Source: Escherichia coli (GTDB lineage: Bacteria; Pseudomonadota; Gammaproteobacteria; Enterobacterales; Enterobacteriaceae). Taken from it: DNA of 64,000 nucleotides. The position numbers were made by a program. Below are positions 12,001 through 18,000 of the stretch, piece after piece. The DNA lies in NCBI RefSeq assembly GCF_045037415.1, contig NZ_CP173438.1. One strand, 5' to 3'. Each line of letters begins with the position of its first letter. Within the stretch, counting starts at the first letter, position 1.

Positions 12001-15000
12001 GATTCTACGAACTGAGACTGTCTGTCCAGGGAGAACATACGCATCCCGGCGCAATGCTCCGGTCATTTACAACCTGCTTCTGATCATAAACGCCACGATC
12101 CTTGGCTCTCACAGATTTCGGGAGAAGAAAGTTAGTTTACAGGCAGAAACCACTCATAATATTGACATGAGAAAGATTTTCTGTTATACAAAAAACATAT
12201 GAAATGATATAACATCACAAACTGGAGTTTTTATGGCAGAATCCGGGTTTATTTCTCTCGAATTATCCCGCTCACAGGCGCCTGTTACAATTAGCAAGAC
12301 AGCTATACTCTTTGCAGAAGCAGACAATGATACCCCGGAGTCAACTCATCTACATTGCGTTGGTGGTATCACTCATACCGTAAATGGTGTTTTTAACGAT
12401 ATTGCAGAATTACTTCCGCGATTCATTAAGACGCACCGTCGGGATAATGGTCAGCCCGCAGTGGCTATCCATGACTGGAATGTTTCATACATTGAAAAAG
12501 GCAACGATGCTTCTGCTGTTGTTTACTTCACAGAATCAGGCTCAAGTATAACCGTCCGTGAATCTTACGAAGACATAATAGCAAAGTTTCACGCTCTTTA
12601 GTCAACACCTGTGCTGAGAATTAAAGCAGGGGCAGGATACAATTATCCTGCCCCTGCCGTTAAAGATTATACAATGAGTATTACTTTGTAATATTTCGGT
12701 GGTGGGTTATAAAGATGTGGTCTCCTCAGAGGATCGTTTATGGCAGATAGTGCAGATATTGCTTATGAAAATGAACAATTCAGCATGAGCATCAGACTAA
12801 AAAATCGTATCCGGAATAGACTCCCTGAAACAGGATTCTGCTATAACTGCGGAGAACCTGTTAAGACTGGATTGTTTTGTGATGGTGACTGTCGGGAAGA
12901 TTATGAGAAACGTGAACGATTTGGACAAATAAATACTGACAATGTTTAAAAGCAATACAATTACTGATATCTCTTTCAGACTTCAGAATTAAAGAAAACT
13001 GCCCGAATGTTATCCGAAAAGCAGCTGTAATTAGTAATGCTCTTATCAGGAGTGAAACATCACCTCCCAGAATACATCAGAACAGAAGGATAACAGTTAT
13101 CCGATGTGACGGCTATAATGTGCCGACACAGAGGGTTACTCACCGATCTCCTTCACGGTAATACGCAGCTCTGAGCATGGTGGTGAGCGGGGAGTGCTAC
13201 TGTACAGCCTGATCGGGACGTGCAAACTGAACGACGAGGATCCAGAAAACTACCTTCGCCATGTGTTTGGCGTCATAGCTGACTGGCCGGTCAACCATGT
13301 CAGCGAACTGCTTCCGTGGCGCATAGCACTGCCCGCTGAATAACACATCCCCGTCAATACGGCCCTCGCTGTACTCTTACCGTGGATCCAGCAGTCCACT
13401 TATTTGCATGAATAAACGAGTGGTCGCAGACCACGCAACATCATTCAAATCCCCCGCTAATATTACAGGTAACTTCAGTGTGTATGGAAACACCTCATTA
13501 ACTGTTATCACAAATAAAACGCATACCTGTTCCATATGAAATTTATCACGCCTGACTACATAACATTAATTATCCGGAGAACTGGGATGCCCGTGACACA
13601 GCATGCACAGAAATCCCCGTCGCAACAGCCTTTATCAGAAAACCATCTTTTTACCGGTCTATGGTGTTGCAGAGATATTTAATACTGACGCCGCGCATAC
13701 CATTTTTCTCCATCGCATTGTAAAGATGCGCACATACCGTCTTCATGGTTATCCCCAGCCGGTCTGCCAGAAAGGTAAACCCGTAGTCATGGAAAACAAC
13801 CCCGAAGACCACCACCATCTCTGTCCGGGTCAGTGGCCTTGCCGTATGTCCGAACAGCCACGCTCCACGGCGGATGGTTTGCCTGATATCTGTCAGGCAT
13901 CTCACAGAGGAAACAGGAATGACAAGAAACCGACGCCCACAGAACATAGAGTATGTAAGCCTTTCCAGATTACGGTCACAGAGAATCACATAACTGTCTT
14001 CGGGAAGTGACTGACGTTGCTTTCCGGCATTAAACAGCTCTCTGCCTGTCGTGACCTGATATCCGCTCAGTATACGCATCAGGCCATATTCCAGATATCT
14101 GTCCCGGGTCATAATAATAATCAGCATACTCTCTGCCCCTTGTATCCCGGATACCGGCTCCGTTTACCATTACCGGTATAACTGACTTATCATTCATAAC
14201 GGAAACTGTCTGCCGCATACATCAGCGCCCGCTCTTCCAGCTCTGACAGGCTCAGTTCTTTCAGTTCCCCTTCCCCTTCAGCAAGAAGATAACATTCAAA
14301 AACGGCTTCATCGTCGCATTCCAGACGCACCTGCGCCCTGTCAGCCCGACCGTTTACAATAAATAGCTGCACTGACCTTATGCGATAGTTCAGCATATAC
14401 ACTCTTCCTCTCAGATCTTCAGGAATACCCGGGAACAGTCAGTTATGCCATCGGGGAGAAAAACAGGCAGCGAATCATTACTTCATACCGAAAACTGCCT
14501 CCCCGGTGACTCAGGCCCGGGTTCAGAACTACCAGTTGACACCCACATTCCAGGAAACATAGCCGCCACTGAAAGTAGTACCTGCCTTTAAGCAGTCTGC
14601 TTGGCACTATACCCGCCCACAGCCGCTATGGCGTTAAATTTATCCTCACTGTACGGCTCCCGCTTCATTTCCTCGTGATTCTCATTAATCAGCCCTGCTG
14701 ACTGTTCAGACGCTCCGCATGCATCTCCAGCACCTCTCCCGGGGAAAGCAGCCCCCGGGTGTTACGGTTTATGGCCACCGTGTTCCGGATGATATTCTCC
14801 CTGTTCTCTGCAGCGACCGTATCTGTATGGTCACACGCCTTAAGCACTTATGCTGTAATCCGTCCACTGATGCCACTGTACACCTCATCCGTCAGCGGGT
14901 TCAGTTGCCTGATAGTGGCTGCTTCCGTATCCCATGCACCATCACTGATACCACCGGGACCCCGGATTTTATCCGGTCCCCGCGGACTGACAGGGTTTGT

Positions 15001-18000
15001 GACACCTGAGTCATATCTGATGTAAACTTCATTTTCACGGGTTGTACAGGAAAACTCCCCCTGTGCCATTGAATTCTGATGTGTGCCCTTCGCCACAACT
15101 CCCACCGTCACGGCACCAGTTGCATCTGACGCCGACCAACTGCTGAGAGCCATGCCGTTTCCGGCTTTGTCGACAACGCATGCTGCAGTTCCCAGCGATG
15201 CGAACTGGTCTGGCATGCATTCACGAACCAACAGCAGTGGTGCTACGTCCGGATGCAATTCGCATGAGCTCCAACCGCGGTTGTAAGTTCAGCAGCCCGG
15301 GCCTCTGCCCCCGGCACAGTCGCATAAGTATTCGATACCGTGCGACACCATTACCTTCAGGATACGCCACGGACCCGTCACCCTACGAAAACGCCGGAAC
15401 ACCGGCAATCAGCAAAGGCAGCAGTGATAAAAGACTGATATATTTCCTGTCATTATTTTTCATATTAATTTAACTCCTGATTAACCGGTTTTTATTGATA
15501 TGAGAAAGTAATAGTTGCAATAGCCTTCACACTTCCAGGTGTAGTTGCATCAGCAATTTTTATATAATTGGCTCTTAAATTGATATGTGGATTTACCTCT
15601 CCCCTGTAATCGGAGAAGTGCCATTGACTGCCATTTCCTTTCACAGGGGAGTCTTCACCATAGCTGATGGCAGTTACATCACTGTCTTTATATAGCCTGA
15701 TGCCAAATCCTTTTGCAGTGGATTCACTGCTTAAGGTCAATATATCTGTTCTGTTCACTGGCTGTGATGCATCTGTCAATGTAGCATAAACATCAATTCC
15801 ATCCGGGCATTGTAGGTGTATGTCAATTTTACCTCCCTGTATTTCTTTATACAAAGATGTGAACTGTGATTGATATACGGTATTTAATGGCACCACATAG
15901 TTTTTTTGCCCCATGGTACATGTCTGACTCTGTACCTGAATGCGCCCACCATTTAACATAACAGGTGCTGTCAGTCCTTTATTATTTAAACTTGTACGTT
16001 TTGCTTCCAACAAAATAGTACCAAGCTGCCTGGTGGGTATTGTTATATATCCATTGGGTAATCTTCCCGTTGCGACAAAAGCAACAAACAAACGAGCTCC
16101 GAAGCTTGCTGTCGCACCGTTATAAGTATTGGGGTTTGTATTGGCACCTACAGGGTCAATATATATACCTGAGCTATTTATGGGGACCAGAGGCGTTGCG
16201 GGCCAATAGCCCGCCATGCCAATAATAATACCCAGTCCGGATACACCAATATCATAGATATCAAAATCAGATGAATCACGGCTGTTTCCTTGATGGAAAG
16301 TATACGTAATACTTCCAATTTTAGGCAGTGCGGGTGTAAACTTTCCACGCATCAGAGCGATGGCACCGCCATTAAAAACATACTGGTTACTTGTTCCCGC
16401 CAGCTCTCCTATCACCCGGGGATAGGTATGGGCATCAGCAGGACCAATCACAACACCTGGCAATGTGGATGTATTAACCGCTATCTGCGAAGGCACATAA
16501 TCATCCGGACCCGCTACCGCCAGCTTAGGGAGTAAAATTAAAAACAATGGTATGAAAAAGATTCTTTTCATGTTTTTTCCTGATTAGGGTGCTGTATACA
16601 CAGAACAGGAACGAGCTGAGATTGCATATCATCTTTATTGTGTGCAACATGATATACAAATGAACATCTGTCTTTATTATCTGGTCCCCATACAACGCTG
16701 AGATGACCTTTTTCAGGGAGTCCCCTGGTAAATACCTTCCCGGCCTGAGCGACATATCCGGCCAACTGTCCATGTTCATCCAGAACTTCAGAAGCCATTG
16801 GAGGGGGATTGCCAGTAGACATACGAATATCAAATAACAGACTTCTTCCTGTTTTAGTGTCAAATTTCACTAACGTGGCGCTATTAGCACGAGGAATGAT
16901 TTCCTGCTCCGTCGCCGATAATTCAACATTCAAATCTAAATTGGAGGGATCGATGCTAATTTGATTTTTCTCATAGGGTGTAACATAAGGAACAACACCA
17001 TTTCCCCAAAAATCCAGACGACTACCAGAGGCATTATTGATGACAGCCCCCTGAGCTCCTTCAGCATGGATAATGGCAAAAGTATCACTCAGGTCATTAC
17101 TCAATGTCACTCCATAGGGGTGTGCGACCACCGCTCCCGACGCACCAAATGACCTTTGATTATTATTCTGAGTATCATGCCCGACTGTTGTGGTTATATT
17201 TACATAAGGTGAACGATAACCCCCATTCATTGCATAACCGGAAGGCCCGTTTTCCTGGCTGTTTCCTGAAATACCATAAGAGAACTGATTATCCTCCCCG
17301 CCAGTACCACTAATTGATGTCTGAATACTATTTTTCTCTTCTTTGCTATAATTTAAAACAGTGGAAAACACCGGGCTTTGAACACTTCCTCCCAGAGGGA
17401 GAGTAAAATTAATATAAAATCTGTCATCACGGCGTTGTTGCTCATTATCTCTTGACTGAGACAATCCAATTTGATAGCCGAGTTGTTTCCAGAAGTTGCT
17501 GTACCCCATCTGGTATTCATTACGACTTCCTTTATGTCCCCAGTAATTATAGGTTGTTCCTGTTAAATACATCCCACCCCATTTTTCACCTAATTCCTGG
17601 TTGATTGAAATCTGGAATTGATTCCTGGGACGATAAAACGCTGTACTTTTTACAGAAACATCATCAATAAACGCGTTGTGATTAGCTGATAGCGCATCCT
17701 TCAGATGATAAAAATCTTTTGATGAATAACGATAAGCCGCCAGAGTTATATTTGTGTTTGAGGCTGGAATATTGATGCTATAACTTGAGTGCAGACTATA
17801 ACCTTTACGCGTTACACCGGAATACCTGAATGCTGTTCTGGACAATGTAATGTCAGATGCTATAGCACCCAGAGGGGTATTAAAGGCCAGGCCAGCTAAC
17901 CCCGCTGTATATCCTGAAGCTGTGGTAAGACCACTGTTTAAAGTAATATCATTCGTCAGGCCGTATTGATAGGTGCCTTGTGCTATTAAATCATTATATG

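Follow-up and report, generated by a model that had tools for sequence, protein, structure and literature searches.

In the 64,000-nucleotide (nt) stretch of Escherichia coli DNA analysed here (RefSeq assembly GCF_045037415.1, contig NZ_CP173438.1; hereafter the window), the minus strand downstream of the fimbrial adhesin gene uclD carries what we read as the remnant of a second adhesin gene, whose beginning looks well preserved and whose remainder is broken. The following parts can be recognised:

14523-15463, minus strand: the whole pseudogene, remnant of a gene for a 421-amino-acid (aa) YadA/Eib-like trimeric autotransporter adhesin, from ancestral ATG to ancestral TGA
15474-15478, minus strand: ancestral Shine-Dalgarno sequence AGGAG, with a 10-nt spacer to the ATG at 15463-15461
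15383-15463, minus strand: signal-peptide open reading frame (ORF) of 26 codons ending in TAG, translated as MKNNDRKYISLLSLLPLLIAGVPAFS
14848-15258, minus strand: 136-aa ORF, made of about 15 out-of-frame codons and then ancestral codons 89-208 (head repeats, neck and start of the stalk)
14525-14523, minus strand: ancestral stop codon TGA

An intact orthologue of this gene exists in E. coli JNEC-KY175 (WP_042968617.1, 421 aa; L012:4019-5284). It has the same ribosome-binding site, start codon and signal peptide (MKNNDRKYISLLSLIPLLIAGAPAFA|QSDG) as the window copy and aligns with it through both ORFs down to 14523, with 87.5% nucleotide identity over the aligned columns of a codon-wise alignment. 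The original prediction, made from the sequence alone, was that a gene encoding a secreted protein of the surface or periplasm had probably been inactivated, and the contrast between an intact YadA-like orthologue and a disrupted copy in the window agrees with it. The test that it proposed, a search for homologues spanning both reading frames, was run, and such homologues do exist. Its assignment of both ORFs to one gene was thus correct, but the dead gene extends about 325 nt past the end then proposed, to 14523. Megablast located the 1.2-kb region in 395 of 5,426 complete E. coli genomes, 314 of which match it at 99% identity or more, and further matches of 80-90% identity carry the annotation 'YadA-like family protein'. 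Strain 2012EL-2448 has an intact 400-aa gene at the matching locus, and the copy of strain SMBL (L001:6019-7285) is interrupted by a single frameshift, a +1 C insertion. When the 400-aa intact allele was compared with the window by tblastn, it matched in three frames from 15198 to 14526 and the pieces were colinear.

The domain content of the intact orthologue identifies the family. Pfam recognises YadA_head (PF05658, 40.7 bits) and YadA_anchor (PF03895, 60 bits against a cut-off of 22.7, residues 363-421); YadA_stalk (PF05662) stays at 20.8 bits, under its cut-off of 28.4, and the NCBIfam YadA and Ata models match only below threshold. Proteins of known structure fill in the picture, with matches to EibD (2xqh) over residues 35-229 (E=1.4e-43), to the EibD stalk (2xzr) over segment 293-352 (E=7.5e-12) and to the YadA anchor (2lme; E=1.5e-17). 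The ancestral protein would therefore have consisted of a Sec signal peptide, a YadA-type beta-roll head, a neck, a saddle with a coiled-coil stalk and a C-terminal anchor, whose four strands per monomer would trimerise into a 12-strand barrel. By ancestry the gene belongs to type Vc, since it has the YadA_anchor and the order signal peptide, YadA head repeats, neck and coiled-coil stalk; the window copy itself has lost the uninterrupted, exportable reading frame.

Lesions were scored against the natural intact gene of WP_042968617.1 by DNA and codon alignments:

15385-15383, minus strand: Q27*, CAG to TAG, nonsense
15341/15340, minus strand: -4 bp (GCAT) at codon 43, the first frameshift
15284/15283, minus strand: -3 bp at codon 63, in-frame
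15257-15258, minus strand: +1 bp (T) at codon 71, a frameshift that makes the TTG start of the 136-aa ORF
15223-15221, minus strand: G83*, GGA to TGA, nonsense in the ancestral frame
15213/15212, minus strand: -5 bp (CTGGT) at codon 88, frameshift
14850-14848, minus strand: E209*, GAA to TAA, nonsense, which ends the 136-aa ORF
14695/14694, minus strand: -238 bp, codons ~261-340, a frameshift between imperfect direct repeats TGAACAGYCAGCARC
14659/14658, minus strand: -36 bp, codons 353-364 (AAAQSAALAGLF), in-frame, at the start of the YadA anchor
14591/14590, minus strand: -40 bp, codons ~387-400, a frameshift in the beta-barrel anchor
14531-14529, minus strand: E420*, GAG to TAG, nonsense, two codons ahead of the native stop

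The 11 lesions thus comprise four nonsense codons, five frameshifting indels and two in-frame deletions, and 326 of the 1,266 nt of the gene (26%) are missing. The 238-bp deletion takes away the saddle and much of the coiled-coil stalk. The anchor loses 76 nt through the 36- and 40-bp deletions, but its flanks are still recognisable (…PYSEDKFNAIAAVGGYS… and …VSWNVGVNW). A trimeric autotransporter requires its C-terminal anchor for insertion into the membrane and for export of the passenger domain (type Vc secretion). With this anchor destroyed, the locus cannot yield an adhesin. As far as can be judged from sequence, the remnant would be expected to have no function, its frame being broken nine times (by the four nonsense codons and five frameshifts) and its anchor destroyed. 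The locus has what defines a bacterial pseudogene, namely disruption relative to an intact orthologue and relaxed constraint, and we found no evidence contradicting that status. We therefore put at about 95% the probability that 14523-15463 on the minus strand once encoded a short YadA/Eib-like trimeric autotransporter adhesin and is now an old pseudogene with multiple disruptions.

When was the gene lost? The junction between uclD and the remnant is present in 360 of the 5,426 complete genomes, and lesions were checked one by one in six strains: the window itself, UTI89, 4/0, A24 (from an armadillo), HH45 and SCU-101. As 4/0 is identical to the window over the region, the five other strains add four lineages. 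All five carry every shared lesion within the part of the gene that each retains, and three of them have acquired private ones: -1 at codon 140 in HH45, +4 at codon 377 in A24 and +1 at codon 128 in SCU-101. In SCU-101 an IS3 insertion sequence has in addition removed the 3' half of the remnant, the 68-aa ORF that follows it and part of the next gene, which encodes a helix-turn-helix (HTH) protein. In the SCU-101 lineage (about 42-46 genomes at 95-99% identity; L004:5603-6860) this IS3-family element cuts the remnant at ~14900 and removes the N-terminus of the HTH protein, a loss that is evidently tolerated there. Substitutions tell the same story. The window and the SCU-101 lineage are separated by 8 differences in 564 sites of the remnant and by 13 in 3,615 sites of uclC plus uclD (Fisher p=0.004), so that the remnant diverges about four times faster; between the window and HH45, five of 937 remnant sites differ, besides an indel, against none of 1,770 in uclD and the genes for the 68-aa and 158-aa (HTH) proteins (p=0.005).

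Nei-Gojobori omega between the remnant and the intact orthologue is 0.49 (dS, the synonymous divergence, 0.22), whereas two intact alleles, set side by side over neck, stalk and anchor, give 0.07. Among 5.8 billion proteins, the closest match to the stitched translation of the window copy was 77% identical and no nearer intact protein was found, which is weak evidence that this allele has no intact version, as the same search also missed the 101-aa protein WP_001218590.1, identical to part of the query. Taken together, these sequence comparisons point to death of the gene ahead of the diversification of the ucl island, with its decay still ongoing.

Three other explanations have to be weighed against an old pseudogene. 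According to the first, fragments of the dead gene have been recruited as new small genes, either a 26-aa secreted or membrane peptide made from ucl mRNA or the 101/136-aa ORF. The start region invites this idea. The ATG at 15463 with its AGGAG, the short signal-peptide ORF and the stop after it, as first described, are all present in the sequence; the Shine-Dalgarno sequence is unchanged in the SMBL allele (ATCAGGAGTTAAATTAATATG) and one base off in contig L007 (ATCAGAAG...). From the uclD stop codon (TAA, 15494-15492) to the start codon of the remnant there are only 28 nt, in the same orientation and with no convincing terminator between, and via the intact ribosome-binding site the 26-residue signal peptide might be translated from read-through ucl mRNA. 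Two further points speak for recruitment. First, the ribosome-binding site is intact and the 26-codon ORF has kept its length in all six strains, with one V to A change in HH45; variation is too small to separate conservation from lack of time. Second, the Prokaryotic Genome Annotation Pipeline (PGAP) calls a 101-aa 'hypothetical protein' within the remnant in many genomes.

The call in question, WP_001218590.1 or WP_001218589.1, covers the last 101 codons of the 136-aa ORF (14848-15153, minus strand) in genomes that include 4/0 and A24; in UTI89 and HH45 nothing is annotated at the remnant ORF, and no record flags the locus as a pseudogene. Several observations speak against recruitment. The private indels leave the 136-aa ORF with 118 aa in HH45 and with 74 in SCU-101, truncating the annotated ORF as well. 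Neither has a Pfam match, and NCBIfam gives only a marginal match to Ata (E=0.004). A bare signal peptide is normally degraded, and substitution density in the remnant is raised. We therefore regard the recruitment of these fragments as very unlikely, and WP_001218590.1 is best read as a fragment of the dead adhesin gene.

According to the second explanation, an otherwise intact surface-protein gene was inactivated recently by one frameshift after the signal peptide. This was the view of the original prediction, and the pristine appearance of the ribosome-binding site, ATG and signal peptide, followed by a long ORF in another frame, makes it easy to see why. The event after codon 26 is not a frameshift but the in-frame nonsense change CAG to TAG (Q27*, 15385-15383), directly past the AFA/AFS signal-peptidase site, and the ancestral frame runs on for about 16 codons until the first frameshift, the 4-bp deletion at 15341/15340. 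The out-of-frame ORF of about 136 aa does exist and does derive from the same ancestral gene; it is not joined to the signal peptide by a simple frameshift. Against recent loss stand the eleven separate lesions, the 326 nt missing and the destroyed anchor. The lesions are common to ucl lineages that are 0.4% apart in their ucl genes, as far as each strain retains the gene, three strains have added further ones, and omega stands at 0.49 rather than 0.07. A recent, single-step inactivation is in our opinion even less credible than recruitment.

The third explanation invokes an error of assembly or sequencing, or else a gene that is in reality intact and subject to phase variation or programmed frameshifting. 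It draws on the fact that frame changes in surface-protein genes are typical of contingency loci, but it has practically no chance of being right. Hundreds of independent complete assemblies agree exactly in this sequence. The indels all lie outside homopolymers and short tandem repeats, by which phase variation is ruled out, and four in-frame stops plus three anchor and stalk deletions are beyond bypass by slippage.

How did an adhesin pseudogene come to lie behind uclD? The features that flank it are these:

15492-16571, minus strand: uclD, intact, Ucl fimbrial tip adhesin (PDB 7mzp, 'F17-like fimbril adhesin subunit UclD', E=7e-133)
15478-15481, minus strand: fusion joint of the ucl cassette with the adhesin-island fragment, marked by the microhomology ATCA and lying 14 nt before the start codon of the adhesin gene
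14190-14396, minus strand: 68-aa ORF, intact (WP_000935974.1; L001 and L002 have orthologues of 91% aa identity), a conserved partner of intact adhesin genes
13651-14127, minus strand: gene for a 158-aa HTH protein, intact (88% aa identity to orthologues), the 'LuxR-type regulator' of the original prediction

The 158-aa protein matches Pfam GerE only below the cut-off (E=0.003) and has a weak BglJ-like match as well. The placement of the dead gene between a LuxR-type regulator and the ucl adhesin gene was thus right, with the 68-aa ORF also lying between the remnant and the weakly LuxR/GerE-like HTH gene.

The joint was located by comparing three sequences that overlap at ATCA (window 15478-15491, minus strand; L009:6320-6345; L001:5990-6018). 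On one side, a divergent ucl-like cassette in ECamp083 (81% nucleotide identity) matches the window from uclA to 15478 and then continues into unrelated DNA; it shares only 9 nt past the uclD stop codon before diverging (L009:6320-6345). On the other side, homology to adhesin islands (SMBL, 2012EL-2448, HY220605 and contig L007) is confined to window positions 15481-13499. The overlap of the three sequences at ATCA argues for an illegitimate join by which the adhesin gene lost its own upstream region and gained the 3' end of the ucl cassette in its place. In this scenario, a piece of about 2 kb from an adhesin island, with the adhesin gene, the 68-aa ORF and the 158-aa HTH gene (13499-15481), would have become attached to the uclABCD cassette at its 3' end through illegitimate recombination at a 4-nt microhomology, removing the upstream region of the adhesin gene. 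After the fusion, or already before it, the gene would have drifted without selection and gathered its 11 lesions, and the remnant would now be non-functional passenger DNA that hitch-hikes with ucl in a pathogenicity island of uropathogenic E. coli (UPEC). The joint also points to mobility of uclABCD as a discrete unit of four genes.

The window is a UPEC island; in strain 4/0, a 100% match, hlyA, hlyD, cnf1, ucl and pap surround the locus. The ucl genes have been placed in GI-leuX of UTI89 and F11 (PMC9236248), and the main Ucl paper makes no mention of a downstream autotransporter, pseudogene or LuxR gene (PMC9236248). Likewise, a literature search combining trimeric autotransporters, Eib and pseudogenes brought up no account of this locus.

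In islands without ucl, the intact adhesin gene stands downstream of a giant 11-14 kb adhesin-like gene annotated as 'GA-like domain-containing' or hypothetical. It is also preceded by a second YadA-like gene in SMBL, L007 and JNEC-KY175; some ucl-less genomes have this second gene at 560-580 aa, or instead a 'calcium-binding protein' (L001:1-5775, L002:1-5374, L005:1-3602, L012:1-3775). Downstream of the adhesin gene lie LuxR-type regulators and YqaE/Pmp3. The adhesin islands further contain an MscS-like channel and PAPS reductase, beyond which 2012EL-2448 has genes for an exonuclease and an IbrB-like protein. As far as could be found, the adhesin island is uncharacterised. Damage is seen in other members of the family: protein P0010 of UMEA 3656-1 has an out-of-frame start and is truncated, and the SMBL copy was damaged independently. 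In E. coli, members of this family seem to be easily pseudogenised.

The 68-aa ORF and the 158-aa HTH gene always lie downstream of intact adhesin copies, and in the comparison with HH45 they have no substitutions while the adjoining remnant decays. They could be orphaned regulators, possibly retained for another role such as the regulation of ucl. The same orientation directly downstream of uclD and the lack of a convincing terminator between would allow the signal-peptide mini-ORF, the 68-aa ORF and the 158-aa HTH gene to be co-transcribed with ucl, the pseudogene being a mere spacer or 3' untranslated region; we hold this to be unlikely, if somewhat less so than recruitment. An Rfam scan of 14100-15700 (E of 1 or below) gave only a chance microRNA match inside uclD and no RNA element. 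A scan for terminator patterns found three sites, the number expected from shuffled sequence, one of them a hairpin with a U-run in the signal-peptide ORF (15407-15392). On folding, neither this hairpin (z -0.84) nor one past the ancestral stop (~14500-14525; z +0.38) was better than shuffles, and the idea that the remnant supplies a terminator for ucl was dropped.

Past 13499, short fragments of endonuclease/exonuclease/phosphatase and transposase genes (13194-13470) are annotated as partial pseudogenes in 4/0, and further on lie a PapI ORF (11497-11730, plus strand) and a PapB-like regulator ORF (10778-11092, minus strand). Strain 4/0 has an additional IS66-family element (ISEc23) there; the window appears to lack this copy, its ORF list for 11000-13500 containing no transposase-sized ORF.

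The importance of the finding is limited: the adhesin family is a known one, and its pseudogene here is old and ordinary. RefSeq leaves the locus empty or fills it with a 101-aa 'hypothetical protein'. For inventories of UPEC adhesins, it means that the locus is not to be counted as a trimeric autotransporter. Together, the lesion map and the joint present uclABCD as a discrete mobile cassette, pasted in UPEC onto a piece of another adhesin island, and the joint will be useful in tracing the history of the hly-cnf1-ucl-pap island.

Comparison with known systems places the remnant among four groups of relatives. WP_042968617.1 of JNEC-KY175, its near-identical cluster (P0001) and the SMBL copy are orthologous, with the same ribosome-binding site, start codon, domain order and downstream partners (the 68-aa ORF and HTH/LuxR-like genes); besides the lesions of the window copy, the difference is upstream, where the window copy is fused to uclD whereas WP_042968617.1 follows a second YadA-like gene and the giant adhesin-like gene. 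The second relative is EibD, the immunoglobulin-binding protein of E. coli (2xqh, 2xzr), with whose head, neck, saddle and stalk the intact orthologue can be aligned at the sequence level. Eib genes are prophage-borne, and Eib proteins bind IgG Fc or IgA non-immunely through their stalk. The intact orthologue is shorter and island-borne, and would be a paralogue rather than an Eib: its similarity is at the level of a paralogue, not the close identity that joins EibA/C/D/E/F/G, and its locus, a chromosomal adhesin or pathogenicity island, has no phage genes adjacent. The window copy has lost most of the region that corresponds to the saddle and stalk of EibD. With Yersinia YadA (2lme), the intact orthologue shares a homologous C-terminal YadA_anchor, and head specificity is unrelated in detail. 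Finally, WP_000700770.1, the 400-aa 'hemagglutinin' or YadA-like protein of 2012EL-2448 (cluster P0012), comes from the same type of locus and has a near-identical neck, stalk and anchor, but carries another signal peptide and head allele, which makes it a mosaic with 57-59% aa identity to the stitched translation of the window copy.

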